Of a stretch of 64,000 nucleotides of DNA, positions 18,142-53,659 are shown piece by piece. The DNA is from Candidatus Poribacteria bacterium (GTDB lineage Bacteria; Poribacteria; WGA-4E; WGA-3G), in the NCBI GenBank assembly GCA_022824265.1, contig JAJEAG010000059.1, positions 8,736 through 72,735 of the forward strand, given 5' to 3'. Position 1 is the stretch's first letter. Each line of letters opens with the position of its first letter. The position numbers and the translations under genes were made by a program. The notes beneath the pieces were generated by a model. The model was not told the DNA's origin and did no database searches. It saw only the letters and a program-made list of their open reading frames with translations.

Positions 18142-21100
18142 TTATAGCCGATCATAACCATAACCGTTTCCAGTAATCTCAAAGAGTGCAGATGCAGCAA
18201 GGAAATGAATATCAGCATCTGTGTCTTCCAATACTGATTCCAGAACTTGTATAGTGCTTACGTTCTTTGCATCTGCCATTGCTCTAATCAGGTCAATTTG
18301 AAACGCGCGTTCAGTTTTATCAGCATATAACGTGGTAAGTTTTTGCACAAGTGCTGAAACAGCATCATTCGTAGCAATTTTCCCGAGTGCGCGTGCAGCA
18401 TCTCTGCGGATTTCAATATGGTTTTCATCATTGTTCATGATTTCAATAAGAGCGTCAGTTGTGGAAGCGTCTGCAAGTTCACCTAATGCTTGTGTTGCTA
18501 ACCTACGAACATCTTTATTGTTCTCATTTTCACCGTTTGCTACGAGCACAAGGTCGTTTGTCAATGCAACTGTATTTGTTTCACCAATTTTACGAGCAGT
18601 ATCCTTGCGTGTATCCACGTCTGGATCAGAAAGTGCTTCTCTGAGTTGTGAGACATCAAGGGAACGCGTGCGTCCTAAAGCGACTGAAGCTGCGTTTCTG
18701 ATAGGATTCCCTTCCCATTTGTCATCCACGCGCGCCTGCAATTTTCCCGAAATGAATTCAGGTAGATTATGTTTTTTTGCAGCCCCAACGATAATTCTCC
18801 AACTCCAATTCCGTTTTCTATCATTAAGAGCCAAATTGCGTCTGTTTGCAGCATCTTCAAGGGCAATAATATATTCCGTGTCATCAATGAGACGATTGGC
18901 AAGTGCGTTTGTCGCTTCTATACCACCAATTTGTCCTAAGGCAACAGCGGCTTTCATTCGAGGGGAAGCATTTGCTAATACAGCTGTGCTGGCATCTAAA
19001 GGAATCCGCTTATCCTCTAAGATTGGAATTAGTTTTGATACGGCTTTCGTACTTTCCAGTTTGCCAAGTGCTATGATGGCATTGTTGGAGATATTGCCTA
19101 TGCGTCCATCAACTGCACGGAGTAGAAGGTCCTCGGAAGTTTGATCACCGATATTACCCAGTGCCGTAACCGCCGCAGCACGGATAGCATCAGTCTCTAA
19201 AGGGTTCTCAACCATTTCGCTGAGTTGAATAACCGATTTCGCATCTCTTATACCTCCCAAAGCAGCGACCGCCTGTAAACGGACAGCACTGTTTTCATCA
19301 TTGAGTGCATTTCGAAGGATAGGAGCTGCGCGTTCGTCGCGAAGGGCATTCAACGAGGCAACGGCTGCAGCGCGTATAGATTTCGATTCTTCTCTGTTTT
19401 CCAGAATTGCTATTAAAGGTTCTACTGTCTTTCTATCTTTGAAGCCTCCAAGCCGAGTAACAACTTCCTTGCGAATAACATAACTCGGATTATTCAATTC
19501 AGCAAGCATCGTATCCAATGCTGAACTGTGGTGAATGACACCAAGCATATAAATGATTGCCCAATGAGTCCATTCATCATCAACAGTTTTGAGGGCATCA
19601 AGTAGAAATTCTGTTGTCGTTGCATTTCCGTTTATTAGGAGTGCACCGATTACCTCGTTTTGAACAGATTGAACTTCATGACCATCTTCAAAGTTGCCTC
19701 GTCCCTTTTTAACAATTTCAACGAGTGCTTTGTCAGCAAGTGTTGGACTAATTTCTCTTAGTGCCTTAGTCGCTTCAAGACGTGCTGTTTCATACTTATC
19801 AGTCTTGATTATATCAATTAATGGTTCAACGCTTTTAGCAGATTTAATTGTTCCTAACGCAATGGCTGCTTCTTGACGGACAACCCCCTGTTTTTCCTTC
19901 TTTAGAGCAGTAATAAGCGCATCAACTGCTACGTCACCACCAACCCTACCGAGTGCCCATGCGGCACTACGTCGTACTGTTGCACGTTGATCATCAACCA
20001 ATGCATTCGTTAGTGGTTCAACGACGGTATCACCTTTGAAAATACCGAGTGCGCGTGCAGCTTCACTACGAACAAGACTGGGTATGGGTTTGAGTTCACC
20101 CCAAATCCGATAGTATGGACGCCGATATTCTGTTGTCCATTCGATATTCAGAGAATCAAGATGTGATCTAAGTGCATCAAGTGTCTTATACTTCCGTTTC
20201 ATGTGACGCTGAAAATCGGATATCTCATCGAATTGCATGGACAATACCCAAAGTAAGACGGGAAGTGTTTCTGTGTCTTTAATACGGCTTAGAACCTTTA
20301 CAGCGTTTGATCGGATCACAGCACTTGTTTCATCACTAAGTATGAGCAATAGCATCGGTTGTATAGCCTCTGTCGGTTTCATTTGCCACAAGGCGTTGAT
20401 AGCAGCGGATCTGACCGTTTCCCGTCGCAGCTTATCCATTGAAATCGCAATCAATTTCTCAACATTTTCTTTAGTAGTGACATTTATTTTACTGAGTGCT
20501 TCCGCTGCCTGTGTAACTGTCGTATCATCAAGTTGGAGTGCTACAGTAAGTGCAGTGACAGCAGTATTGTTAGGACCGCGTGCACGCATGTTACCAAGCC
20601 CTTTAGCTGCAATAGCTTTCACCTCTTTGTTGGCATCACCAGTCAAGATGTTAATGAATGGTTGTATTGCGCGTCTATCCCCAATTGTACTCAAAGCATT
20701 TGCAGATTCTAATTGAACAAGATATTCACCCGTTTGCAGCGCGTCTATAAGTGCTGGTACCGCTGCTCCTCGCATTGTAATTAGCGCGGTAAGTGCTGCA
20801 CCCTTTAGGTCTTCGTCTGCCAATAGTTGAATTATAGAAACAACTGCTTCTTCCGCCCTGATTATACCCAGAGTACTAATCGCAGCAGATTGTACTCGCA
20901 AACGGTATTTTTTCATCCAAGAATCGTCAATAAACGCACTCGCTATATATTGATATTGTTCTGAAAAACCGTTATCTACATCTGGAATGATATTGTTTGC
21001 GCGGGTTTCAAGCACGGCTAAAAGCGGTGTGATCGCTGGTTCACCAATTCTATCCAGAGCAACTATAGCAGTGTCTTTGACGTAACCATTAGAATCGGCT

Positions 21101-22020
21101 AAAAGCTTGATTAAATCGTCAACTGCTGCTTCTGCTTGGAGTTTTCCCAGAAGTTTCGCAGCATGCATCCGAACTTGAGCATTGTTGTTTCTTGTTGCCA
21201 GCTGTAGTATTGAAACTATTTCCGGATTAAGTTGGAATTTAGGCTTACAGAGTGCTCCTACCGCAACAATCGCGCTATAGGCGGCTTCTGGTGCTTCATC
21301 TGTTTTGGATAGAATTGACTTATAGGTTGAAATCAGTTCACTGTTTTGCAGTGTTCCTAATTCTCTAATTGCTGCTTTTCTAATCTGAGGGTCTTGGTGT
21401 TGTATAGCGGATTTTAGTAGCGTAACATAATTAGAATCCACACCATCTGTTTTGTTCTTTAGTCGTTGTAATAGGTGTGAAACTGCAACGTGGACACCTT
21501 GTTGATAACATTTTTGACTTTCTAACAGCGCAACTGCAACGACTGAATCCTGTCTCTTTGCTAAGTCTGTTAACAATGTGGGTTGTTTCTCAACTGCCAT
21601 TGCGAGTGAAGTAGCAAGCAAACCTGAAATCGAGTTCCGTGATCTGATAAGTCGTTCCTGCCGGTTTAGTTCGTCAGAATCGGGGTCATCCAGTATGGTA
21701 ATTGCTCGGATATCTGTATTCAACGTTTCAAGATGTGCCAACGCTTGAACCATGGCTTGGTGCCAACTGCTTGCATCTGCACTGTTTCGTAACTGCAATA
21801 GTCGATTGAGATAAACTGCTTCCTGATTTTCTGAATCTTTATCACGGGCTTTTTGTACAGCAGATTCCGCTGCTGTATAATCCTTTTCAACAATTGCTTG
21901 TCTTGCTGAGAGGATAGTTTTGTCTTCTTTTTCTCCACACCCCACGAGAAATGAAATACACAGAATAATATGAATGCAGATTATAGAGTATCGCCTCATA
22001 ACGTATTGCCTCAACAACAT
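18142..22020 (-). CDS. HEAT-repeat (PBS-lyase-type) domain protein, 1292 aa, probable lipoprotein/secreted
   Basis: Dozens of ...VR..AA.ALG.IG...A...L...L.D.. units. N-terminal hydrophobic segment with LVGCG. The antisense ORF 18332..19144 is its low-complexity mirror. Confidence 0.8.
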   Translation of the reverse strand: MLLRQYVMRRYSIICIHIILCISFLVGCGEKEDKTILSARQAIVEKDYTAAESAVQKARDKDSENQEAVYLNRLLQLRNSADASSWHQAMVQALAHLETLNTDIRAITILDDPDSDELNRQERLIRSRNSISGLLATSLAMAVEKQPTLLTDLAKRQDSVVAVALLESQKCYQQGVHVAVSHLLQRLKNKTDGVDSNYVTLLKSAIQHQDPQIRKAAIRELGTLQNSELISTYKSILSKTDEAPEAAYSAIVAVGALCKPKFQLNPEIVSILQLATRNNNAQVRMHAAKLLGKLQAEAAVDDLIKLLADSNGYVKDTAIVALDRIGEPAITPLLAVLETRANNIIPDVDNGFSEQYQYIASAFIDDSWMKKYRLRVQSAAISTLGIIRAEEAVVSIIQLLADEDLKGAALTALITMRGAAVPALIDALQTGEYLVQLESANALSTIGDRRAIQPFINILTGDANKEVKAIAAKGLGNMRARGPNNTAVTALTVALQLDDTTVTQAAEALSKINVTTKENVEKLIAISMDKLRRETVRSAAINALWQMKPTEAIQPMLLLILSDETSAVIRSNAVKVLSRIKDTETLPVLLWVLSMQFDEISDFQRHMKRKYKTLDALRSHLDSLNIEWTTEYRRPYYRIWGELKPIPSLVRSEAARALGIFKGDTVVEPLTNALVDDQRATVRRSAAWALGRVGGDVAVDALITALKKEKQGVVRQEAAIALGTIKSAKSVEPLIDIIKTDKYETARLEATKALREISPTLADKALVEIVKKGRGNFEDGHEVQSVQNEVIGALLINGNATTTEFLLDALKTVDDEWTHWAIIYMLGVIHHSSALDTMLAELNNPSYVIRKEVVTRLGGFKDRKTVEPLIAILENREESKSIRAAAVASLNALRDERAAPILRNALNDENSAVRLQAVAALGGIRDAKSVIQLSEMVENPLETDAIRAAAVTALGNIGDQTSEDLLLRAVDGRIGNISNNAIIALGKLESTKAVSKLIPILEDKRIPLDASTAVLANASPRMKAAVALGQIGGIEATNALANRLIDDTEYIIALEDAANRRNLALNDRKRNWSWRIIVGAAKKHNLPEFISGKLQARVDDKWEGNPIRNAASVALGRTRSLDVSQLREALSDPDVDTRKDTARKIGETNTVALTNDLVLVANGENENNKDVRRLATQALGELADASTTDALIEIMNNDENHIEIRRDAARALGKIATNDAVSALVQKLTTLYADKTERAFQIDLIRAMADAKNVSTIQVLESVLEDTDADIHFLAASALFEITGNGYGYDRL

Positions 22021-22025
22021 AGTGT

Positions 22026-25000
22026 TTACTCCCCAGCAATTACCAATTTCGTCAAGTCAGCAACGACATAGACAGGTTCTGCTATACGGTTTAACAACGC
22101 CAATCGATTTCTACGTAGGTCAGTATCTTCTGCCATAACAAGTACGTCGTCAAAAAACTTGTCTATTGCAGGTTGAAGTCCTGCCAACTTTGTCAACAGT
22201 TCTGAATATGCTCTTGCCTGAATGCTTTTATCAAATTCGAGTTTTGCCTCGGTAATGACAGCATTTAGTTCTTTTTCAGCTTTATCTTTTAGCAGTGCAG
22301 CATCTACGGTTACTGGTACATCTTCAGGCAAGATTCTAAGCACCCGATTGAGTGCATTATATACCTCTTCAAAATTGTGTGTCAAGCGAAATTCAGCAAC
22401 GACACTGGCACGTTCGAGAATATCCACAATATCAACATTACCGACTGCTAAGACAGCATCTGCAAGATCAGGGGCGTATTGATGTGTCTGTAAGATACCG
22501 CGGAGACGTTCTTTAATAAAGTTTAGGACACTTGTTTCTGTATCGTCAACTAATTCTACTTCATACAGAGCAATTGCCTTCCGGACAATTGCATCTAAAG
22601 AGAGTGGCAACTGCCGATCTTGAAGGATACGGATTGTACCGAGTGCATGCCGACGCAACGAGTAAGGGTCCTGTGAACCTGTGGGACGTTCTTCTATACC
22701 GAAGTATCCAACAATCGTATCAAGTTTATCAGCGATAGCGAGGATTGCACCGATCTGAGTTTCAGGTAGAGGTGTATCCGCACCAAGTGGTTGGTAGTGT
22801 TCAGCGATAGCTGTTGCGACCTCATTGGGTTCGTCAGAGTTTTTAGCATAGTATCTGCCAGTAATTCCTTGCAGGGACGGAAATTCAATCACCATTTGGG
22901 TAGTTAAATCAGCCTTGCAGAGCCATGCTGCACGTTCTGCATGATATGTTGTTTCTTCTACCAACTTCAATTCAGCACTGATGAACTTCACCAAATCCTT
23001 TAATCGTTCTGCCTTATCTAAAAGAGAACCGAGTTTGGCGTGGAAGACGACAGCACCTAAACGTTCAACTTTATCGGTAAGACCAGTTTTCTGATCTGCA
23101 CTATAAAAGAACTCAGCATCGTTAAGCCGTGCGTGGAGCACCCGTTCATTCCCGTGCCTCACACCATCACTATTGCCATCTGTTCCATTAGATATAGTGA
23201 TGAATTTCGGAGCGAGTTCAGTATCATTCTTCCACATCGGAAAATAGCGTTGATGCTTTTTCATTGCTGTAATCAGCACTTCAGGTGGTATTTCCAGATG
23301 CGACTCACTGAAATTACCGACAATCGGTTGCGGATTCTCTACGAGATAGTTGACTGTATCCAATAGTTCTTCGTCCAATTTCGGGAGACATCCTTCGGTT
23401 TCAAAAACGGTTCGCACCTGTTTTTCAATTATATCACGTCGTTGCTTTGGACACGCGATAACATCAACTTCCTGTAATTTCTGAATATAGTTGTCCACGT
23501 CTGCGGATGCCAAAGTGATTGGATCGGGATGCAAAGATCTATGTCCATAGGTAATACGACCTGCATGTGCTGCACCGTAAGTGCAGTTGACAACTTCATC
23601 TCCGAGTAATGCAACTAACCAACGTATTGGACGGGCGAAACGGGCAAATGCGTTTGGTTCTTCAGATTCTGTTTCCCACCGCATCGTTTTCGGAAAACGG
23701 AGTGTCTCAATCCATTCGGGTAGTAGTGTTTCCAATAGTTCGTGAGTAGACACACCTTTTTCAAGTTTTGAAGCACAGATATACTCTCCCCGCTCAGTCT
23801 CAACGATACGAAGCTCGGAGATTTCAACACCTTGCGTTTTTGCGAAGCCAATCGCTGCCTTTGTGGGTTCACCGTTTTCATCGTAAGCGATGCTTTTCGG
23901 CGGTCCTGTAACTTCTGTCTCCTGACTTTCCTGCATGGTTTTGACATTCTCTATAGCAAGTGTGATACGGCGCGGTGTCCCCAATGTCTGAATTTCACCA
24001 AACGGTATTCTGTGTTCAGATAGAGAATCGGTTGCAATCTTACTAAGTTGCTCAAGAACAGGCGGCATATAACTTGCTGGGATTTCCTCTGTCCCAATTT
24101 CAAAGAGGAAGTCGGCAGTATCAGGAAGGTCTGATGTAGAGGGTTCGGTGCGGTTAGAAGCCACGTCTATTGTGGTAGAGGTATTTTCCGTGCCAAAACG
24201 TCCCATTAGAGGGTGTTCCATCTCTTCTCGTTGCGTTACATAGGCGCGAGCAATACGTTGTGCCAACCTACGCACACGTTCAATATAACTTACACGTTCC
24301 GTGACGCTGATAACACCCCGTGCATCCAGCATGTTGAAGGTATGTGAGCATCTCAAAACATGGTCAGTTGCGGGGAGAACTAAACCTGCATCTAAACATG
24401 CGTGGGTTTCTTTTTCATAAGTGCTAAACTGGTCAAAAAGCATGTCAACGTTTGCGTGTTCAAAGTTGTAGGTAGAGTATTCCACCTCACTTTGATGATG
24501 TACATCCCCATAGTTCAGGTGTTCATTCCAACGAATATCAAAAAAGGTATCAACATCCTGTAGATAAAGCGCAATACGTTCGAGTCCGTAGGTAATCTCA
24601 GCACAAATCGGGGCAAGGTCTATGCTACCCATCTGTTGAAAGTAGGTGAACTGTGTAACTTCTGCACCATTCCACCAGACTTCCCAACCAAGTCCTGATG
24701 CACCAAGGGTCGGAGATTCCCAATCATCTTCTACAAAACGTATGTCATTTTTTCGTGGAGAGATACCGAGATGATACAGACTCTCAAGGTAGAGTGGTAA
24801 TACATCCTCTGGTGCTGGTTTTAGTATGACTTGATATTGGTAGTATGCGCCAAGACGGAAGGGGTTTTCTGCGTATCTGCCATCGGTAGGTCTTCGGACA
24901 GGTTCTACATACGCTACCTTCCACGGTTCTGGACCGAGGCAACGTAAAAATGTGGCGGGGTTAAATGTGCCTGCGCCGACTTCTATATCGCATGGTTGTT

Positions 25001-25064
25001 GAATAATACATCCTTGTTCTGCCCAAAATTTCTCTAATGCTAATATTATTTCTTGTAAGGTCAT
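22026..25064 (-). CDS. glyQS: glycine--tRNA ligase, fused alpha/beta subunits
   Basis: N-terminus [37 protein letters not shown] is GlyQ. The ~700-aa C-terminal extension is GlyS-like. Confidence 0.9.
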
Positions 25065-31255: not shown

Positions 31256-34252
31256 TTATCGTATGATTGCGAACCTTCCAATCTTATTCCCGATGACGTT
31301 ATTGCTTCCATCTTGTGCTTCAACATGGTAGATATAAACACCGCTTGCCAATGCCTGATTATATCGGTTGAGCAGGTCAAATTCAGTAGTTCCACCTTTG
31401 TCACCCTGTGCGAGACGTTCATCTTCGTTGAAGGGTGTTGCACTTTCATGTTTTAATTCTCGCACCAATTCACCAGCCAATGTATAGATTCGGATGGTAC
31501 ATCGCGGCGGTAGACGCATGAAATAGATTTTATCTGTTCCTTCAGTCTGTACTGCTCTATTGGTGACGAAATACGGGTTCGGCACAACACGAATATTTGC
31601 GAGATCTTCTTCTATATCATCAGCTTCAAGTGATTCGCCTTGTGTTGCGATCAGAATCTCGTCTCCATCCTGTGGTGCAGCAACGCCACCCATTTCAACT
31701 GTGAATACATCACCAGCGGAAAGTTCACCATTGGGATCAAAGATATAGACGTAGGCACCACGGATGAATATTCTAAAGTATCCTACCGTATCCTGTGGCA
31801 CATATTCATCACTCCAACCTGCCCCTGTCAAGATAGCATACCCATCAGCACGTTGGTCATTGAATTTGATTTCCTCCCCTGTATCTTCGTCCACCACCTT
31901 AACGTGTGTATCGTCTGTAAATGTGATGGAGTAGGTATGGGGACGATAGTAGGTAGCCCAAAAGATATTGGGCCAAGTATTTTCACCTGCCCCAGGAGAT
32001 TCTATCTTCACTGACCAGTCTGTGACGGTTCCTGCTGTTAGTTTAACATCATTGATTGGGTTTTCGTCGGGACTACCATAAGTTACGTCAACCCCTTTCA
32101 TATTCAAGATTATGCCATCAAACATTGGTGTACGTGCCTCATAAGCCTCAAAGTGGTTAGCATCATACCAGTCGAACGTTGTTTTTTCTACGACCGTTTG
32201 ATTCGTTGTAGTATCAATGATTTCGTAAGCTGGGGGTTGATGTCCAGGACCTGTGATATATGCCCCAGGTCCGGTCTGTTTAGCCCCATACCAAACAATC
32301 TTATATTGATTTCCCGTAACTTTGTTTGGGACTATCACCATTGGCTCTATGCTAACAGGAATAGCGTTTTGTTCCACATCAATGACCGGTTCTCTATAAC
32401 CTGCGGGATGCGCGCGTGGAACAACATGAACCATCGTTTCAATCTGGCTACTTTCCATCGCTGGTAATGCTTTTTTAGGGTTCCCTGTATCGTAAGAGGT
32501 GACTGCGTAGGTATACTGAATTCCGTTGGTTAAGTCTGTATCTGTATAGAAATTCTTGATGCCGACATCTTCCCCAAGAGCCTGTGATGGTGTGGAAACG
32601 ACGCGGAAAATGTCGCCTGCAACTGGCGGACCTGAAGGACCATCGGTTATTTTTACGTAGAGTCCACCGAAATAAATCTGCTCTCCAGAACGATATGTTC
32701 CATCTGGGTAGGGTTCTCCTGAATTCGGATCCTTTACGACAACATACCCACCACCATTTGCGGGAAATTCGGGATTATATGCCATAACTTCCCACAATGT
32801 CGTGTTAATCACCTCAAAACTTGTGCTGGAATTAAATTTGATGGCATAGGTAGCACTCTTAAAGAAATCAGCGAAAAAGGGTTCATCTCCCATGCTTTCA
32901 ATGGTGGCATCTGACTGCTTACCAACGTGTGAAACGGTGAAGAAATTACCGGTAGCACTCGGTTTGTCAAACTCCATCAACAATTCCCAGTCTTCAACAG
33001 GTTTTCCAGTGTTTTCATCATAAGCGGTATCTCGTCTATAAACTCTGTAGCCTTCAAAGATTTTTTCTGGATCGGTTACATCAACATACTCTTCAATACT
33101 TTTTTGGACACCGTTATCAACCCAACGTCCAGCACTTTCCCAAACAAGTGACACCTGTCCATCGGCAGGATAAGCCGCTACAAGAGGGGAAGGAGGCGGA
33201 GCTGGGGCAACATAATCATCGTCATATAACTTCTGTGCCCAGTCAGATGATGTTTGCAAACCCGCAAGTCCTTCACCGATTGCCACCGCGATGATGACGT
33301 TAAATGTTTCACCAGGGGCAAGTGTTTCAATCGGACCGTAGGATTGGATAAAACGCTGGTCATCGTAGTTTGCAGGAAGAGGTTCAACACCGGGAGTGCT
33401 GATTAACGCGTACATTTCCGCATCAGTTGTTGGATCTGTATCTATTGTAATTCGTTTGTGTGCAATAAAATTGATTTTTGCATCCGCATCTTCTGGATCC
33501 TCACCCATGTATGCATCTAAGACTCGCAGCCCGATGTAACCGGGGGCAGAGGCATTAGAGAAACCGTAAGAGAGGTACCGATTTGGGTGATCATCTGGGT
33601 TGAGACCGTCTGGTGTCTGATCGAGCGCGACGAAATCATCCGCTGAGTAACTTGCCGTTCCTGTTTCGTTACTGGAGATGTCTACATCATAGCGGAAAGC
33701 CATAAACACATCTTCAAGTGTGTCTTCTCCAACGTTTTTTACATTATATTCAAGTATAAAGAAGTCGTACAGCGGGGCGTAACTCCATTGGAATCCGCTA
33801 ACATCAAGTTCTAAGCCGAGGATCAACCCTTTATTTGCTTCAGGGTTGGTATCAGAACATTTGAATCTAATTAATTGGTTTGTCGGTGTGCCTTTTGATG
33901 TCACTCCTGGTTTCTTGGAAAGAATATCAACTAATTGACCAGTATCTGGATCTTCAATTGGAATTGGCCAGATTTCACTTTGTCTGCCATCTGCCTCAGC
34001 AACGCCAATCTCACCACCTTTTCTGGCACCAATCCAGATATCTCCTTCATAAATGTAAGAATCGTTAGTACCTGCGGGCCACCATCCTGACGGATTCTGT
34101 GAAGGGTTCCTGGGATACCCTACGACTGCAGTGTTGAAAATAGCAGAGGACATATTGCCGACATCAAGTGCTTTCCAATCCTCTCCTGCATTGACCAATA
34201 GTGTGCTAAATGTTAAAACCGTAAATAAAATACTATATCGCAGTATTTTCAT
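31256..34252 (-). CDS. large secreted protein (998 aa) with C-terminal T9SS-type / FlgD-Ig-like sorting domain
   Basis: Signal peptide. C-terminal ~100 aa VVPNPYF...IRIYTLAGELVREL...SGVYIYHVEAQDG...IGRFAIIR resembles the Por-secretion CTD. Adjacent to the PorV-like gene. Confidence 0.65.
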   Translation of the reverse strand: MKILRYSILFTVLTFSTLLVNAGEDWKALDVGNMSSAIFNTAVVGYPRNPSQNPSGWWPAGTNDSYIYEGDIWIGARKGGEIGVAEADGRQSEIWPIPIEDPDTGQLVDILSKKPGVTSKGTPTNQLIRFKCSDTNPEANKGLILGLELDVSGFQWSYAPLYDFFILEYNVKNVGEDTLEDVFMAFRYDVDISSNETGTASYSADDFVALDQTPDGLNPDDHPNRYLSYGFSNASAPGYIGLRVLDAYMGEDPEDADAKINFIAHKRITIDTDPTTDAEMYALISTPGVEPLPANYDDQRFIQSYGPIETLAPGETFNVIIAVAIGEGLAGLQTSSDWAQKLYDDDYVAPAPPPSPLVAAYPADGQVSLVWESAGRWVDNGVQKSIEEYVDVTDPEKIFEGYRVYRRDTAYDENTGKPVEDWELLMEFDKPSATGNFFTVSHVGKQSDATIESMGDEPFFADFFKSATYAIKFNSSTSFEVINTTLWEVMAYNPEFPANGGGYVVVKDPNSGEPYPDGTYRSGEQIYFGGLYVKITDGPSGPPVAGDIFRVVSTPSQALGEDVGIKNFYTDTDLTNGIQYTYAVTSYDTGNPKKALPAMESSQIETMVHVVPRAHPAGYREPVIDVEQNAIPVSIEPMVIVPNKVTGNQYKIVWYGAKQTGPGAYITGPGHQPPAYEIIDTTTNQTVVEKTTFDWYDANHFEAYEARTPMFDGIILNMKGVDVTYGSPDENPINDVKLTAGTVTDWSVKIESPGAGENTWPNIFWATYYRPHTYSITFTDDTHVKVVDEDTGEEIKFNDQRADGYAILTGAGWSDEYVPQDTVGYFRIFIRGAYVYIFDPNGELSAGDVFTVEMGGVAAPQDGDEILIATQGESLEADDIEEDLANIRVVPNPYFVTNRAVQTEGTDKIYFMRLPPRCTIRIYTLAGELVRELKHESATPFNEDERLAQGDKGGTTEFDLLNRYNQALASGVYIYHVEAQDGSNNVIGNKIGRFAIIR

Positions 34253-34317: not shown

Positions 34318-34692
34318 TCAAGACGCATCTCGTAACGAATACGGTTGAATCAAAATATCCGCAGAAATACCGAGACCTTTGTGCAGACTTCGGATCATAT
34401 CCAAAGTCAAAGTGCGCTGTCGTTTCAAAACATCTGTCACGCATGATCGCGAACCAATATAGGGTTCAAGATCATGCTCTGATAGTCCCTGACTCTCCAT
34501 ACAGTGAAGGATCACATCAATTGGATCTGTTGGTGGAATAGGATGATGTTCCTCCTCATACACCTCTACGAGTGTTACCAGAATATCTAATTTATCACCT
34601 TCTGGAGAACCATAACTCGCGTCCCAGAGTTGATCTATTTTTTTCAGTGCATCTTCATAGTCAGATTCAGTTTTAATTGGTTTGATTTCCAT
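34318..34692 (-). CDS. higA: HigA family antitoxin (HTH-containing)
   Basis: Start MEIKPIKTESDYEDALKKIDQLW with SD taaggtga. It lies downstream of higB, and the C-terminal HTH region is typical. The track ORF is extended into higB. Confidence 0.7.
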   Translation of the reverse strand: MEIKPIKTESDYEDALKKIDQLWDASYGSPEGDKLDILVTLVEVYEEEHHPIPPTDPIDVILHCMESQGLSEHDLEPYIGSRSCVTDVLKRQRTLTLDMIRSLHKGLGISADILIQPYSLRDAS

Positions 34693-34702
34693 AACAATCA
34701 CC

Positions 34703-34996
34703 TTAGATCGTAGTAATATCAATCCTATCGTATTCTTGGTGAGTTCCAATAAATCGGATATAAACAATTCGATATTGATATTTTATTGCCACTACTAAAC
34801 GGTACGAATTTCCCTTAATATTGAATATCACGCGGTTGTTTGCGACAAAACTTGCGTTTTGATAAGCAGCCTTTATATCAGATGATGTTTTCCAATCTGC
34901 ACGTTTAACTTTAGCATACCAGGCTTGAAGTGGTCTCTCAGCATCAGGATGTTTCATCCAAAATTCCCTCAAAGTACGCCGCGATATTATTCTCAT
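34703..34996 (-). CDS. higB: HigB toxin (RelE/ParE superfamily mRNA interferase)
   Basis: MRIISRRTLREFWMKHPDAERPLQAWYAKVKRADW...NNRVIFNIKGNSYRLVVAIKYQYRIVYIRFIGTHQEYDRID is a near-textbook HigB. Confidence 0.8.
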   Translation of the reverse strand: MRIISRRTLREFWMKHPDAERPLQAWYAKVKRADWKTSSDIKAAYQNASFVANNRVIFNIKGNSYRLVVAIKYQYRIVYIRFIGTHQEYDRIDITTI

Positions 34997-35043
34997 GCGT
35001 GTATTATACCATTAATTGCCGATTGACACTTCAATAAATATAA

Positions 35044-47024: not shown

Positions 47025-47651
47025 TTACATTCTCTCGTAAATTTTGACTTCACGAATTTTAGCCCCTTTCAAAGGAGTGACAACTTCATGAGAAAAGTTT
47101 AGATCATTACTTGCGGTACTCTTGCTATCCATGCGATTTCCAATGCCATCTGCAGTAATTCGCAGGTATAACACCTTTTGCCTTATATTGAACCTTGCAA
47201 CTTCTCTTTCTTTTATAGTTGTGTATCGTTTATCCTTTACAGGTATAAAAGAATTTGCCCATTTCGGTGATTTTTCCTCAACTGTTAAATCAAGAGTAAT
47301 CTTTGGAATTTCAGAATCAGCATATATTTCCACATAAGACACGTACGTTGGTTTATCCAATTTTATCAGTGTTTCTGTTTTTAGAGTGCCGCTATGGGTT
47401 GTTATAGAATCCCCAGGTTTAGTGAGAGCACCTGGTTTCCCTTCAATATGATACATTTGGCGAATTGCACCGTTTGCCCAAAATTCCCCTACTGTCTGCA
47501 AATCTCCATCTACCATCTCTGGATTTGCTGCACATGTTAGACGTGTAGGTGCTAATTCTACAGCAGGGGTATTTTGAAATATGGCACATCCCTGAACAGC
47601 GACTATTACTATTAGTAGTCCGATAATGGTATTGTAATTTCTATCGCGCAT
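47025..47651 (-). CDS. hypothetical lipoprotein, tandem paralog A
   Basis: Signal/lipobox IVAVQGCAIF. Shares the motifs DKPTYVSYVEIY..S.IP and LKGAKIREVKIYERM with the upstream paralog. Confidence 0.55.
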   Translation of the reverse strand: MRDRNYNTIIGLLIVIVAVQGCAIFQNTPAVELAPTRLTCAANPEMVDGDLQTVGEFWANGAIRQMYHIEGKPGALTKPGDSITTHSGTLKTETLIKLDKPTYVSYVEIYADSEIPKITLDLTVEEKSPKWANSFIPVKDKRYTTIKEREVARFNIRQKVLYLRITADGIGNRMDSKSTASNDLNFSHEVVTPLKGAKIREVKIYERM

Positions 47652-48306
47652 AAAATTTAACCTCCCGAATTGATGCACCTTTTAGCGGAATCTGGATGCG
47701 AGTATCCTTGTTCTCATCATGTTCTTTGCCCTTACCACGAAAAGGATTAAGTTCATCTTTAATACGTGTTGAATGTTGTTTGTCCTGAATCCCGTCAGCA
47801 GTCAACCGCAAATAAAGGATTTTTCTATTGATTTGTATTCTAACAGGCTGTTTAGTTTCAACATTGATATGTTGTTTATCAAGCACTACATCAAAGGATG
47901 ATTCAAACTGTGGGGGGTTGTTCAGCGTTGTTGTTAAGGCTAACCTTGGAATCCGGGATTCGGGATATATCTCAACATAGGTTATAAAGGTCGGTTTATC
48001 TAATTTTATCACCGCTTCCGATCGAGAATTACCTTCAACCTGAGTTAAATATCTGAGTTCAGCGGTATCGATTCTGCGATTCCTTTTTTCAAAAATCTGA
48101 TAGCCTTTTTCAACATGACCTTTCACAGTAAATGTGCTTACCGTCTCTAAATTTCCATCTACGAGTTCAGGATAGATTTGGCTTGAAAGCCGTAACGGAT
48201 CAACTTCAAAAGTTGGTTGGTTCAGGACAGCACACCCTAAAACACCAATCAGCAAAATGGATAAAATGCCTAAGTTTTTCATCTGTTTTCTCCTGTTGAT
48301 ATGCAA
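47641..48306 (-). CDS. hypothetical lipoprotein, tandem paralog B
   Basis: LIGVLGCAVLN lipobox; DKPTFITYVEIYPESRIP; C-terminal LKGASIREVKFYAR. Confidence 0.55.
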   Translation of the reverse strand: MHINRRKQMKNLGILSILLIGVLGCAVLNQPTFEVDPLRLSSQIYPELVDGNLETVSTFTVKGHVEKGYQIFEKRNRRIDTAELRYLTQVEGNSRSEAVIKLDKPTFITYVEIYPESRIPRLALTTTLNNPPQFESSFDVVLDKQHINVETKQPVRIQINRKILYLRLTADGIQDKQHSTRIKDELNPFRGKGKEHDENKDTRIQIPLKGASIREVKFYAR

Positions 48307-50190: not shown

Positions 50191-53166
50191 TTATTTTTCA
50201 AGATTAAAATGAAGCATACCGTTGTGTGACGTGCCAACGTATACGGTACTGCCATCAACTGCCAGAGAGGTAATCCCATCCGGTATCTCTGAAACAATTT
50301 GTTTCCATTTATCACTTTCTAAGCGATAGACACCTGTAGTCTTAGTAACTCCGTAGAGAGTTTTTTCGTCAACAGTCAGTGTATCCATAATGAGATTAGT
50401 GCCTTCTGAATCGGTAATAGTACCCCAATTATTTCCTTGGTCTGATGCAGCGACTCCTGCGTCTGTTGCCACATAAACTTTGGGACCGACAAACACGATA
50501 TCTTTGAAAGCTTTTACGGCAAAAGGTAGAACTGGTGTGAGATCAAGCCAATTATTTCCTTTATCAAGTGATACGAATAAGTGTCCATCCCGTTTTCCCA
50601 CATAGACAGTATCCCCTGATGCGGCAATTTTAAGACCTTGATTTGCTATTTCCAAAGACAACACAGTTTCTTCCTGTTTAGTGTCGTACCATTCTTTATC
50701 TCCTCGCTCCCATCGGAAGAGTTTAAAGTTGTATTCCATATAGAACGTATCACCACTAATAGCAGACGCACCACGTAAACCTAACGATATAAGCCTGTTC
50801 TGTATCTGAAAATCCTCTTTAACCAGTTGACTGAAGAACTCGGCTGCACCAGTAAAATTGTCTTGTAAATGTTCAAAAGATGGATCCCTTGACAGTGCAA
50901 TTTCCAACGGTTCAAAATAGTCTGAGTCAATAATTGGCATATCTTGAAGCGGTACAAACGTACTGTTATCTGTAGACAGACGATATAGACGCACTTTTCT
51001 TCCGTTTTCTTTATAATTTACACTTGCATAGATAATACCATCAGATATGACTATCTGATTTATATGTGGATTTTGCTCTCTGTGGGGTTTATCCATAGGT
51101 ATTTGAACTGGGACTTTCATCCAAGACCTGCCTTTATTGGCAGTTTTTACTGCATCTATTCCAAGTCTTCCATAGAGAATGGAAAGTCCATTTTGTGCTT
51201 TCTCATTTCCCTTATCCACAATGAAGTCATACATACTAACCTTATCCTTGTCCGGAGTGATATTCACCATATCCCACGTTTTACCTCCATCAGAAGAACG
51301 ATGAAGACCATCCCAACTACCGACATAAATCGTATCCATATTCACAACTACTGCAGAACTCATACTATCCATAGATGGAGTGATTGCAGCCGATTGTGGC
51401 GGCAACCATGTGATACCACCATCGGTAGAACGCACCATTCCTCTCTCCATTAATAGAAGTGTTTCACCAGCAGAAATGAGTTTGGCTTCGGGGATAAAAC
51501 CATTCACTGCCCAAGCGTTTATTGGGGTAATATCAAGCCACCTTTTACCAAGGTTACTTGTGCCAAACACTCCCCAACCACGATCATGTCCTCGGGACAC
51601 TTTTTCGGGATTATGAGCGGCACGACTGAGTTCTGCCAATACATAAACCCGCTTTTTATTCGTAGCGACTGAGTACACCTCTTTAATTGACTCAGGTAAT
51701 TCCATGCGTTTCCAACCGTCCTCGTCCAAGCGAAAGAGACCATCATCTGTTCCAGCAAAAATTGTGTTTTGGACCTCTACTAATGACTTTATCCTTTCCG
51801 GTAACCTACCGCTAATCTCTTTCCAAGTTTTTCCTGAATCCTTAGAGCTAAAGATACCATTTTCAAATGCCATATAAAACGCTTGTTCTGTTAAGATTAA
51901 TTCAATAGGAAAATAGTATTTAAAGTTATCCCATGAATAAAGTAGATCCCATGTTTTGCCGTCATCTATTGATGTGAATAGATCGCTTGACTGCGTATAA
52001 TACATAGTCTTGTCCCACTTCGCAATAATTTGATTTACGAAACCGGAATGGTCTAATGTAGAAATATCAGAGATTGCTTCCCATTTTTCTTCATTTGCAG
52101 GCAATTTATATATCTTTCCAGAAGCAGGAATTACAGTATAGAGATCACCCTCAGGTGTCGCAAAAAAGCCGTCCACAGAACTACCAAATATCGGTTCAGA
52201 TGGAACCCACGCCAGTTTAGGAACAGAAACATCCTCAACCTCACCCGAAGCAGCCGCAAGTTGAGTTTCATCAGGTTTCTGCCCACTATTATCATTCACA
52301 CTAAGTGCGTTTGCATTCCCAAACTGGTGATTAACTTCTGGATTTATTTCAATATTTAGCACTATCGGAGCATCAACAAGTTCTACCACCATCTCAGTTT
52401 GCGAATCCAAACTAAAAGGTGGTTGAAAATGTGCCAAGTATTGACTACCTATGCCGAGCATCAGTATAATCAATACTGCACTTGATGCAGCAATTGCCCA
52501 CGGAACTAAGGGTTTGCTGGCAGATGGGGTAGCAGGTTTAAGTCGTGCGACTTCCTGCAAAATATTATCGGTTAAGTTCGGTGAGATCTGAAAATGGTCC
52601 AGTGCTTCTCTAATCATCGTTTCCTCCCTTTGTAAACGGTTCCGTGCTCGCTGCAATCGACTTTTTATTGTTCCTGAAGATACTCCCAAGAATCGACTTA
52701 TTTCTTCAACTGTCATTTCCCCAAGATAATGCAACGTCATCACCGTACGCTCGCTCTCTTTCAACCTTGCAAGTAGTTTCTTCACAACATCACGTTGTGT
52801 CTGACCTGCAGTTTTGGCGCGTTCTTCTGTGATATGTTGGGAATAAGAATCTCCGTGTAACATCGTTGTCTCGGTGTCCTCCAAAGGTTCAGTTTGAATC
52901 CGTTTTTTGCGAAGCCAAGTGGCACATAGACGTGTCGTAATCACATACAACCACCCAGAAAATAGGTTTGGATCTTTTAGGGTATGAAGTCTCTGATACA
53001 CGATGAGGAAGACATCTTGGGTAATTTCCTCAGCAATATGGAAATCCTCAATTTTTCTCCAAGCCAGTGCATGAACCGGTTTTTTATACTTTTCTACAAG
53101 TTCGGTGAAGGCGGATTCATCACCAGAGAGAATTCTGTGGATGCGTTGGACATCTTCGTTTTTCAT
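50191..53166 (-). CDS. ECF sigma-70 family sigma factor fused through a transmembrane helix to a large BNR/Asp-box beta-propeller domain (991 aa)
   Basis: Residues ~1-190 carry sigma region 2 (FTELVEKYKKPVHALAWRKI...WLYVITTRL) and region 4 (MTLHYLGEMTVEEISRFLGVSSGTIKSRLQRAR). A TM helix follows (VPWAIAASSAVLIILMLGIG). After it come repeated S-x-D-x-G-x-T-W units (SIDDGKTW, SKDSGKTW, STDGGITW, SSDGGKTW, SLDKGNNW, ASDQGNNW). Confidence 0.75.
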   Translation of the reverse strand: MKNEDVQRIHRILSGDESAFTELVEKYKKPVHALAWRKIEDFHIAEEITQDVFLIVYQRLHTLKDPNLFSGWLYVITTRLCATWLRKKRIQTEPLEDTETTMLHGDSYSQHITEERAKTAGQTQRDVVKKLLARLKESERTVMTLHYLGEMTVEEISRFLGVSSGTIKSRLQRARNRLQREETMIREALDHFQISPNLTDNILQEVARLKPATPSASKPLVPWAIAASSAVLIILMLGIGSQYLAHFQPPFSLDSQTEMVVELVDAPIVLNIEINPEVNHQFGNANALSVNDNSGQKPDETQLAAASGEVEDVSVPKLAWVPSEPIFGSSVDGFFATPEGDLYTVIPASGKIYKLPANEEKWEAISDISTLDHSGFVNQIIAKWDKTMYYTQSSDLFTSIDDGKTWDLLYSWDNFKYYFPIELILTEQAFYMAFENGIFSSKDSGKTWKEISGRLPERIKSLVEVQNTIFAGTDDGLFRLDEDGWKRMELPESIKEVYSVATNKKRVYVLAELSRAAHNPEKVSRGHDRGWGVFGTSNLGKRWLDITPINAWAVNGFIPEAKLISAGETLLLMERGMVRSTDGGITWLPPQSAAITPSMDSMSSAVVVNMDTIYVGSWDGLHRSSDGGKTWDMVNITPDKDKVSMYDFIVDKGNEKAQNGLSILYGRLGIDAVKTANKGRSWMKVPVQIPMDKPHREQNPHINQIVISDGIIYASVNYKENGRKVRLYRLSTDNSTFVPLQDMPIIDSDYFEPLEIALSRDPSFEHLQDNFTGAAEFFSQLVKEDFQIQNRLISLGLRGASAISGDTFYMEYNFKLFRWERGDKEWYDTKQEETVLSLEIANQGLKIAASGDTVYVGKRDGHLFVSLDKGNNWLDLTPVLPFAVKAFKDIVFVGPKVYVATDAGVAASDQGNNWGTITDSEGTNLIMDTLTVDEKTLYGVTKTTGVYRLESDKWKQIVSEIPDGITSLAVDGSTVYVGTSHNGMLHFNLEK

Positions 53167-53186
53167 TGGTATCTCCAGAAAGCGAT

Positions 53187-53213
53187 AGTTTGATCAATCA
53201 CATATCAAACTAT
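53187..53213. promoter_or_regulatory. 9-bp inverted repeat (tagtttgat-N9-atcaaacta) in the promoter region of the sigma-fusion gene; candidate operator
   Basis: Seen directly, 21-47 nt upstream of the minus-strand ATG at 53166. Confidence 0.3.
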
Positions 53214-53361
53214 AATGACGCAAGTTAGAAGAAAAACGGTTGCATAATTCTGAGAAGACGAAAATTCTGGAAAGGAGAGAACACAGATTTAACAGAAGAA
53301 AGACCTTGAAAAAAGTGGTGTTATTTGGAAATTGAATGGTTCTGAAAAACATGAAAAAAAG

Positions 53362-53406: not shown

Positions 53407-53493
53407 GGTCGAGTGGTGGAATCGGTAGACACAATGGACTTAAAATCCATCGCCCCTAACACAGGCGTGAGGGTTCAAGTCCCTCCTCGACCA
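53407..53493 (+). tRNA. tRNA-Leu (anticodon UAA), long variable arm
   Basis: GGTCGAG...anticodon loop CTTAAAA...long variable arm...T arm GAGGGTTCAAGTCCCTC...CTCGACC+A. Hand-folded. Confidence 0.85.
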
Positions 53494-53515
53494 TACTGTT
53501 TTTAACATGTCTTGT

Positions 53516-53589
<74 letters not shown>

Positions 53590-53659
53590 TCCCTTCTTTT
53601 TCTTTCCCATTTAGACTATATAATAATGTGTGTCTTATGTCAGATCCCAATTGGTTGGT

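Follow-up and report, generated by a model that had tools for sequence, protein, structure and literature searches.

Can a sigma factor be a membrane protein that carries its own sensor, and how might such a protein pass a signal from outside the cell to RNA polymerase? These questions are raised by a gene on the minus strand of a 64,000-nucleotide stretch of DNA (the window) from a sponge-associated Candidatus Poribacteria bacterium, in which an extracytoplasmic function (ECF) sigma factor, a transmembrane (TM) helix and a tandem BNR-type beta-propeller are encoded in a single frame. We find that this architecture recurs as a large and essentially poribacterial family, whose first 285 residues are a conserved transducer module with exchangeable ectodomains, and we lean towards the explanation that a single polypeptide serves as the transmembrane transducer and that regulated proteolysis frees its sigma domain. 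The gene and the parts of its product are as follows, with structural assignments drawn in part from an AlphaFold2 (AF2) model.

50191..53166, minus strand: gene for the fusion of ECF sigma factor, TM helix and tandem BNR propeller; complete, 991 aa, stop codon at 50191-50193
52882..53166, minus strand: sigma region 2, residues 1-95, for core binding and -10 recognition (Pfam Sigma70_r2, AF2, profile match)
52621..52791, minus strand: sigma region 4, residues 126-182, with the helix-turn-helix for -35 recognition (Pfam Sigma70_r4_2; co-varies with its own -35)
52513..52620, minus strand: cytoplasmic juxtamembrane linker, EETMIREALDHFQISPNLTDNILQEVARLKP..., residues 183-218, with two predicted short helices
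52444..52512, minus strand: predicted single TM helix, PLVPWAIAASSAVLIILMLGIGS, residues 219-241, rich in Pro, Ser, Ala and Gly (Kyte-Doolittle)
52312..52443, minus strand: conserved extracytoplasmic juxtamembrane segment, residues 242-285 (QYL..FQ.P.SLD.Q.E..VELVDAPIVLN...), a candidate site-1 cleavage or partner-binding region
52207..52311, minus strand: variable, low-confidence spacer, residues 286-320 (AF2 and alignment)
50194..52206, minus strand: tandem beta-propeller ectodomain, residues 321-991 (AF2, Foldseek, Pfam Sortilin-Vps10 and BNR)

An earlier reading of this DNA, made from its letters alone (the sequence-only reading), had described a single 991-aa open reading frame (ORF), and the frame is indeed one unbroken run of 991 codons whose architecture recurs in independent genomes. 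A scan of species-representative genomes yielded at least 587 confirmed relatives, and the best 75 of these loci (about 11 kb each) were used for locus analyses; all 75 are from Candidatus Poribacteria bar two, both of which come from one metagenome-assembled genome labelled 'uncultured bacterium'. In the protein collection there is one entry at 100% identity (P0001), along with over 120 full-length clusters at 54-83% identity and 91-100% coverage, which range from 941 to 1053 aa with nearly all at about 970-1010 aa, and its named full-length matches are likewise all from Candidatus Poribacteria. Within the 75 loci a motif search recovered 151 family N-termini and clustering recovered 190 family ORFs; complete family ORFs number 128, with a median length of 1001 aa. 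The genes are densely clustered, with up to 4 per locus, often in tandem and head-to-tail (e.g. loci L015, L018, L026 and L058), and distinct -35/sigma4 sub-types adjoin one another within these clusters. In the window a tRNA-Leu(UAA) and tRNA-Met(CAU) pair at 53407-53592 on the plus strand is divergent from the fusion gene, and the same tRNA-Met/tRNA-Leu pair lies upstream of a relative at 82% identity (L104), thus marking the latter as the positional orthologue among many paralogues. The notion that a sigma gene and a BNR gene were joined here by an assembly or frameshift error, or that the gene is a pseudogene, is already refuted by these comparative data: complete ORFs and full-length clusters abound in independent genomes, the orthologue shares the upstream tRNA synteny, and conservation in an alignment of 58 sequences is uniform across the sigma/propeller junction.

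Residues 1-182 constitute, as judged from domain matches, a complete and functional-looking cytoplasmic ECF sigma factor, as the sequence-only reading had held. Pfam detects Sigma70_r2 at residues 23-89 (43.2 bits against a cutoff of 24, E 3.5e-11), Sigma70_r4_2 at residues 128-178 (56.2 bits against 25.7, E 2.6e-15) and Sigma70_ECF (24.0 bits against 21.1), and the NCBIfam model TIGR02937 (sigma70-ECF) reaches 88.3 bits, its cutoff being 42.9. Sigma regions r3 and r1 have no Pfam match, and the presence of regions 2 and 4 together with the absence of 1.1 and 3 places the domain in the ECF (group 4) class of sigma-70 factors. The cutoffs of the equivalog models for SigW, RpoE, SigM and others are not reached (PRK09641 SigW, 106.5 against 209; TIGR02939 RpoE, 70.1 against 236), and the nearest sigma relatives in a profile search of the PDB are SigW (5wuq, 3.8e-31), AlgU and RpoE. 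Both sigma2 and sigma4 are folded in the AF2 model with pLDDT values of 70-83, those of the sigma2 helices being 71-83.

The sigma domain is followed by a segment that differs from what the sequence-only reading had proposed, namely that sigma factor, anti-sigma factor and sensor are all united in one protein. The sigma factor, TM helix and sensor are there, but not the anti-sigma factor: the fusion protein has no Pfam match to zf-HC2, RskA or FecR (the last not even at E<=1) and no Cys/His motif. The linker of residues 183-218 (in full, EETMIREALDHFQISPNLTDNIMQEVARLKP) places only 36 residues between sigma4 and the membrane, is too short for a class I anti-sigma domain, and has no Cys and one His. 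The membrane-spanning helix, which had also been proposed, is borne out by the Kyte-Doolittle profile, by its positive-inside flanks and by its presence at positions 220-224 in 58/58 aligned relatives. The segment at about 219-241 peaks at 2.23 and is the sole window above 1.6 in the protein, and the flanks, with a net charge of +2 N-terminally and -2 C-terminally, fit an N-in/C-out orientation with the propeller outside.

The linker, TM helix and juxtamembrane segment are conserved to an unusual degree. In the 58-sequence alignment the mean column conservation is 0.83 for sigma2, 0.87 for sigma4, 0.82 for the linker and 0.80 for the TM helix, as against 0.64-0.78 for the propeller. Invariant residues of the TM helix are P219, P222, W223 and G238, and its helix-destabilising residues comprise P219, P222, S227/S228, G238 and G240. 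A conserved, helix-destabilised TM segment is typical of substrates of intramembrane proteases such as RseP and RasP, and the conservation seen here exceeds what a mere anchor would need. A single-pass helix with predicted N-in/C-out topology and such residues has the structure expected of a substrate of regulated intramembrane proteolysis (RIP). The linker also persists where the ectodomain is of another type or the sigma domain has been deleted, and residues 242-285 are kept across proteins with five ectodomain types, with the similarity stopping at about residue 285.

This boundary became evident when the sigma-less part of the protein (residues 183-991) was used as the query against a representative library of 1.84 billion proteins. 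One class of matches comprises full-length relatives of the same architecture down to about 30% identity, in which the match always begins at target residue ~183. In a second class the match is confined to the first 120-140 residues of the query, with 46-64% identity and again from residue ~183, and the proteins have other total lengths. According to Pfam the ECF sigma domains of these proteins are intact, and the ectodomains behind them are of other types:

WD40 propeller: P0234, P0235, P0239, P0242 and P0243
Transglutaminase core: P0214
CarboxypepD_reg/SdrD-like: P0238
Big_5 Ig-like: P0244

When nine proteins with alternative ectodomains are aligned, they are conserved from residue 1 to about 285, through the motif FQ.P.S.D...E..VE.VDAPIV.N, with no conservation beyond it. 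Those that are named are all from Poribacteria, and both a BNR-type member (P0128) and a WD40-type member (P0234) are on the same 552-kb contig as the orthologue of the fusion gene. Thus, residues 1-285 are a conserved transducer module with exchangeable ectodomains, and its reuse with various ectodomains is what one would expect if the transducer is generic and its sensors can be exchanged. Further, some paralogues combine differing sigma-core sub-types with a near-identical linker, TM helix and ectodomain, and comparison of their sequences suggests recombination or domain shuffling between members.

Six representatives start exactly at Met184 (MIREA...). These could have been ancestral split sigma/anti-sigma pairs; however, their contexts rule this out and show them to be sigma-deleted or decayed derivatives. 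At L107 (2446-5170 and 5629-7027; also at L108), tandem derivatives keep the family promoter, the ribosome-binding site and the first 11 codons (MKNEDAELIQR), after which an internal deletion has taken out the sigma domain and joined the sequence to a new GGAGG-ATG, from which the conserved MIREAI is read. They encode, under the family promoter, a linker-TM-stalk-WD40 protein devoid of sigma that could be a decoy receptor. In L109 a decayed sigma4 remnant is left.

In the full-length AF2 model, which was built on the 58-sequence alignment, residues 321-991 (about 670 aa) are all-beta, with about 14 four-stranded blades (roughly 7+7), a helical insert at 754-796 and a pLDDT mostly of 80-95. The predicted structure is thus a confident tandem propeller. 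There are five strict Asp-boxes (399, 441, 580, 624 and 866) and two loose ones (536 and 675), Pfam reports Sortilin-Vps10 (36.1 bits against a cutoff of 33) as well as BNR, and these repeated motifs in an all-beta model place the ectodomain among the BNR/Asp-box repeat proteins. Hence, the BNR propeller of the sequence-only reading stands, but its extent of about 750 aa with six repeats gives way to a folded domain of about 670 aa behind a stalk of about 80 aa, with the Asp-boxes counted above. In a Foldseek search of the PDB the top rank goes to GH74 xyloglucanases (E ~1e-17; TM-score, normalised to the target, 0.44-0.48), and interleaved with them among the top matches are the Bacteroides hybrid two-component system (HTCS) sensor domains BT4673, BT4663 and BT3049. 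The matches of the ectodomain in the PDB profile search, which span local blades only, are also GH74 enzymes, whose two tandem 7-bladed propellers correspond to the approximately 14 blades of the model. By analogy with the GH74 and HTCS domains, the tandem propeller is probably a ligand-binding sensor, and its ligand is most plausibly a glycan or another polymer.

The region upstream of the fusion gene contains the following elements.

53216..53252, minus strand: predicted ECF-type autoregulatory promoter, with A/T-rich CAGAATTAT, -35 GCAACC at 53243-53238, a 16-nt spacer and -10 GCGTCA at 53221-53216
53185..53213, minus strand: perfect 10-bp inverted repeat, ATAGTTTGAT-N9-ATCAAACTAT, arms at 53185-53194 and 53204-53213, ending 19 nt before the ATG
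53172..53176, minus strand: Shine-Dalgarno (SD) sequence GGAGA, 5 nt 5' of the ATG, read from the sequence, with GGAG kept in relatives

Aligned upstream regions of the family share a strongly conserved bipartite motif, cAGAATTATGCAACCGTTTT-N10-TGCGTCAyT, i.e. GCAACC-N16-GCGTCA, whose end is consistently 46-52 nt away from the ATG across family members. An AAC...CGTC signature is typical of ECF promoters. The -10 element GCGTCA is common to most members with a recognisable promoter, and the -35 element differs by sub-family, being GCAACC, GCACCA, GCACCC, GAGACT, GTGACT or GAAACT. Genes whose sigma4 recognition helix reads '...GVSAGTIKSRLQRAR' have GCAACC in 17/17 cases, and those with '...GVSANTIRSRLRRAQ' have GCACCA in 17/19. 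The mutual information between the -35 hexamer and the gene's own sigma4 helix is 2.41, compared with 1.09 +/- 0.07 upon permutation, and 0/2000 permutations reach the observed value. A variable -35 with a constant -10 and a matching sigma4 is the pattern expected of autoregulated, diverging ECF paralogues, and to this extent supports autoregulation. The sequence-only reading had also inferred autoregulation; the case for it, however, comes from the ECF-type promoter and the sigma4/-35 co-variation and not from the palindrome on which it had been based. The exact GCAACC-N16-GCGTCA motif occurs once in the window, at 53216-53243 on the minus strand, and relaxed matches in the window are at chance level. 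In metagenome contigs the exact 18-base promoter has 31 matches, of which 3 are poribacterial, all 3 before family genes, and the remainder are due to chance. Thus, the promoter was found before other family genes, and no non-family regulon emerged from these scans. One relaxed match in the window had an intergenic look (34321-34348, two mismatches), but it is inside the 3' end of a HigA-like antitoxin gene and is a chance occurrence; this gene is one of two small ORFs at ~34320-35000 on the minus strand that by translation resemble a HigB-toxin/HigA-antitoxin pair.

The inverted repeat lies directly downstream of the -10, at predicted +1 to +30. Given the -10 at 53221-53216, transcription is expected to start in the first bases of the left arm, so that the palindrome is in the initial transcribed region and not in the promoter. 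The perfect 9-bp repeat reported earlier within the promoter (53187-53213) is therefore real, but its arms are 10 bp long and its place is downstream of the promoter. Of 149 upstream regions of family genes about 33 have it, equally far from the ATG, and in 0.76 Mb of related loci its core, TTGAT-N9-ATCAA, is present 22 times where 1.45 would be expected, with 20/22 occurrences directly before family genes. It is thus beyond chance and family-specific. The core is also seen in the window at 47864-47882, inside the coding sequence of the second of two overlapping and mutually similar lipoprotein-like ORFs of about 220 aa (47025-47678 and 47641-48306, both on the minus strand, without a Pfam family), where it is probably there by chance.

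The palindrome is most likely a site that acts as DNA, an operator to which a dimeric regulator would bind at +1, and we favour this over a 5' hairpin in the RNA. A 10-bp hairpin at the 5' end of the mRNA, which would stabilise the transcript or tune its translation, is a doubtful though not negligible alternative. With the predicted start in the left arm, the hairpin would be at the very 5' end of the message and be followed by the SD sequence, and the minimum-free-energy fold does form the stem, at -9.5 kcal/mol. Yet the z-score of this fold is just -1.35 and the arms show no covariation, with 85.3% of cells paired compared with 85.0% in column shuffles and with double changes in just 1 pair. 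Moreover, G-U (12) and A-C (10) mismatches are equally common, so that there is no strand asymmetry, and both the conservation of the 9-nt spacer and the retention of the left half alone in other sub-families argue against a stem.

From the architecture, topology signals, conservation, family size, promoter/sigma4 co-variation, fold similarity and ectodomain swapping observed above, we infer, as parts of the best explanation, a proteolytic release of the sigma domain, a class of ligand and a role for the palindrome. The conserved 36-residue linker and the single TM helix would tether the sigma domain to the inner membrane, and the juxtamembrane segment of about 45 residues together with the variable spacer would carry the propeller sensor outside. 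Binding of a ligand, or damage to the ectodomain, would expose the stalk to a site-1 protease, upon which a site-2 protease of the RseP type would cut in the helix-destabilised TM segment. The freed sigma domain would then bind core RNA polymerase and transcribe from GCAACC-N16-GCGTCA promoters including its own, resulting in positive autoregulation, and the palindrome at about +1 to +30 may serve as a second control point. This explanation is supported by the absence of an anti-sigma domain in the protein, of an adjoining anti-sigma gene in the window and of any recurrent neighbour (protease, anti-sigma or target) across the 75 loci, where the commonest neighbours lack the family promoter. 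It is also supported by the ECF-type promoter conserved at a fixed distance with its strong -35/sigma4 association, by the fold match of the ectodomain to GH74 and to glycan-sensing HTCS propellers, and by the modular reuse of residues 1-285. The proteolytic step gains support from the RIP control of the nearest sigma relatives, SigW, AlgU and RpoE, from the unusual conservation of the linker, TM helix and stalk, and from the precedent of IutY, which is cleaved by Prc and RseP (PMC8999054).

Several observations weigh against this explanation. In AF2 the linker, TM helix and stalk (residues 183-317, with a linker pLDDT <50) lack a confident model, and a model of residues 1-250 (17 sequences), which bears on docking of the linker on the sigma domain, reached a mean pLDDT of 44. 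The TM-scores to the GH74 and HTCS domains are moderate only (0.29-0.48). The sigma4/-35 association could stem in part from co-inheritance of each gene with its promoter, and no non-family gene with the family promoter was found in about 0.8 Mb. Finally, the sigma factor would keep a tail of about 40-50 residues after site-2 cleavage.

Both regulated proteolysis and a tethered sigma factor had been named by the sequence-only reading, and these are indeed the two live mechanisms. A permanently tethered sigma factor would never be cleaved; instead, the ligand would shift its conformation or oligomerisation, and RNA polymerase would be recruited at the membrane in the manner of ToxR or CadC. Such a protein would have no need of an anti-sigma domain to be destroyed, which matches its absence here, and the highly conserved linker and TM helix could pass on a conformational signal. 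In ECF41/42 the holoenzyme can accommodate extensions C-terminal to sigma4 (PMC8999054), and planctomycetal ECF sigma factors, most of which bear WD40 domains according to the paper cited here, are recovered in detergent-soluble (membrane) fractions (PMC8567305). However, a 36-residue tether would have to hold a holoenzyme of about 400 kDa and its DNA at the membrane, no sigma factor is known to act while tethered, and the nearest sigma relatives are RIP-regulated. Given further that IutY, the sole experimentally characterised fused transmembrane sigma factor, is freed by proteolysis (PMC8999054), we consider permanent tethering improbable. The other question is whether the ectodomain is a sensor at all, or primarily a membrane-anchored enzyme, such as a GH74-like endo-glucanase or glycosidase, with the sigma domain coupling turnover or substrate load to expression. 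The top fold and sequence matches are indeed GH74 xyloglucanases, and there is a weak match to the NCBIfam 'F510_1955 family glycosylhydrolase' model. Poribacteria are also known as glycan degraders. Nevertheless, the latter match, at 80.8 bits, is far under its cutoff of 175, the identity to GH74 is just 13-15%, the non-catalytic HTCS sensors match the fold equally well, and paralogues bear clearly non-catalytic WD40 and Ig-like ectodomains on the same transducer module. We therefore regard an enzymatic role as improbable and retain the view of the propeller as a sensor that controls release of the sigma domain.

The surroundings of the fusion gene in the window are unrelated to it and include Uma2, Ldh_2, PhoH, GFO/IDH/MocA oxidoreductases and SLT. 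No paralogue is present among the other ORFs of about 1000 aa in the window, which encode GlyQS, a TonB-dependent receptor, a HEAT-repeat protein and proteins without a Pfam match. Of these, the ORF at 22026-25064 on the minus strand is a single 1012-aa fusion of the alpha and beta subunits of glycyl-tRNA synthetase (PF02091 and PF02092 with DALR). The neighbouring ORF at 18142-22020 on the minus strand encodes a 1292-aa HEAT/Armadillo-repeat protein with 12 HEAT_2 stretches, which is eukaryote-like and of a kind reported for sponge symbionts. Another, at 31256-34252 on the minus strand, has a product of 998 aa that bears a signal-like sequence at its N-terminus and lacks a Pfam match at E<=1e-4.

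The sequence-only reading had described TM-fused ECF sigma factors as reported in a few phyla but mechanistically uncharacterised. Precedents do exist, and in one case the mechanism has been studied. Nor is the fusion rare, as this family has at least hundreds of copies in the reference genomes, frequently several in the same genome. The case with a studied mechanism is the Pseudomonas putida protein IutY (ECF243), which has an N-terminal ECF sigma domain, a TM segment and a periplasmic part, and whose sigma domain is freed by Prc and then RseP (PMC8999054). This hybrid of sigma and anti-sigma factor, from cell-surface signalling, resembles the poribacterial protein in presenting an N-terminal ECF sigma domain, a TM segment and a C-terminal part outside on one polypeptide. 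However, it has a FecR-type anti-sigma part and senses through a TonB-dependent receptor, whereas the poribacterial protein is without FecR, has its own propeller, and has a sigma domain nearer to SigW and RpoE than to FecI. In actinobacterial ECF48/52/53 an ECF sigma factor is likewise fused to TM and extracytoplasmic regions: a ZAS segment and one or more TM helices are present, SCO4117 of Streptomyces coelicolor has a Pro-rich stalk and a carbohydrate-binding domain, and proteolytic activation has been proposed (PMC8999054). Unlike the poribacterial linker, with no Cys, one His and no zf-HC2, these proteins have a zinc-finger (HxxxCxxC, ZAS-like) segment before the TM helix, and they also differ in phylum and in the fold of the ectodomain. 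The planctomycetal ECF57/ECF01-Gob proteins have WD40 extensions, average 5.3 copies per genome and are found in membrane fractions (PMC8999054, PMC7826278, PMC8567305). Like the family described here, they form a multi-copy ECF family that is specific to one lineage and has large beta-propellers as C-terminal extensions, and the poribacterial WD40 paralogues share the N-terminal module of the fusion gene. In contrast, the fusion protein has BNR/Sortilin-type repeats and no WD40 match, and it is by the described features, and not by sigma clade, that we set the two apart. Of the sigma2-sigma4 Cys pair of ECF57 the fusion protein has only C81, and some paralogues have a second Cys in sigma4.

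On the sensory side, the Bacteroides HTCS sensors (BT4663, for heparin/heparan sulphate, BT4673 and BT3049) match in fold and similarly present a tandem propeller of about 700 aa outside the inner membrane, where they bind glycan fragments and signal across one membrane. Their output, however, is a histidine kinase with a response regulator and AraC domain rather than a sigma factor, sequence similarity is not detectable (10-13% identity), and the fusion protein has no Reg_prop match in Pfam. The GH74 xyloglucanases are alike in their two 7-bladed Asp-box propellers of similar size, but are soluble secreted enzymes without sigma or TM segments. Finally, SigW/RsiW, RpoE/RseA and AlgU/MucA, whose sigma domains are the nearest by sequence, are the paradigm of site-1/site-2 proteolysis; there the anti-sigma factor is a separate protein with a domain of about 80-90 aa, whereas here the sigma factor is itself the membrane protein. 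Among the papers searched, none is relevant to BNR or sigma factors in Poribacteria, and none mentions the present fusion. The principle of a fused sigma factor, probably released by proteolysis, is thus already known, and the gain is incremental rather than conceptual. What is specific to this family is its expansion in Poribacteria, a 285-residue transducer that lacks an anti-sigma domain and takes interchangeable ectodomains, the co-variation of sigma4 with the -35, the conserved palindrome at +1 and the sigma-deleted derivatives.

Taken jointly, these features would allow a wider reading, which we offer as a tentative possibility only. The Poribacteria may possess their own large, modular class of anti-sigma-less one-polypeptide transmembrane sigma factors, in which a 285-residue transducer, consisting of the sigma domain, a 36-aa linker serving as a degradation tag or as a built-in inhibitor of minimal size, a TM helix that proteases can address and the juxtamembrane segment, is set on interchangeable BNR, WD40, transglutaminase or Ig-like ectodomains. 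Their sigma4/-35 pairs would be mutually orthogonal, the sigma-deleted copies that keep the promoter would be decoy receptors, and the whole might form the main network through which these sponge symbionts sense their envelope and the host matrix.

Knowledge of ECF sigma factors with fused transmembrane or sensor extensions comes mainly from genome surveys, with the mechanism studied for IutY alone, and the present family amounts to hundreds of natural variants of a single transducer whose sensors can be swapped. As the -35 element tracks sigma4 in an easily recognised promoter, the family is also a natural library of potentially orthogonal sigma/promoter pairs of use in synthetic biology. It includes natural sigma-deletion derivatives, and the family as a whole could help reveal whether membrane tethering alone can replace an anti-sigma domain. 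More generally, the family hints at how uncultivated sponge symbionts may sense the matrix of their host.

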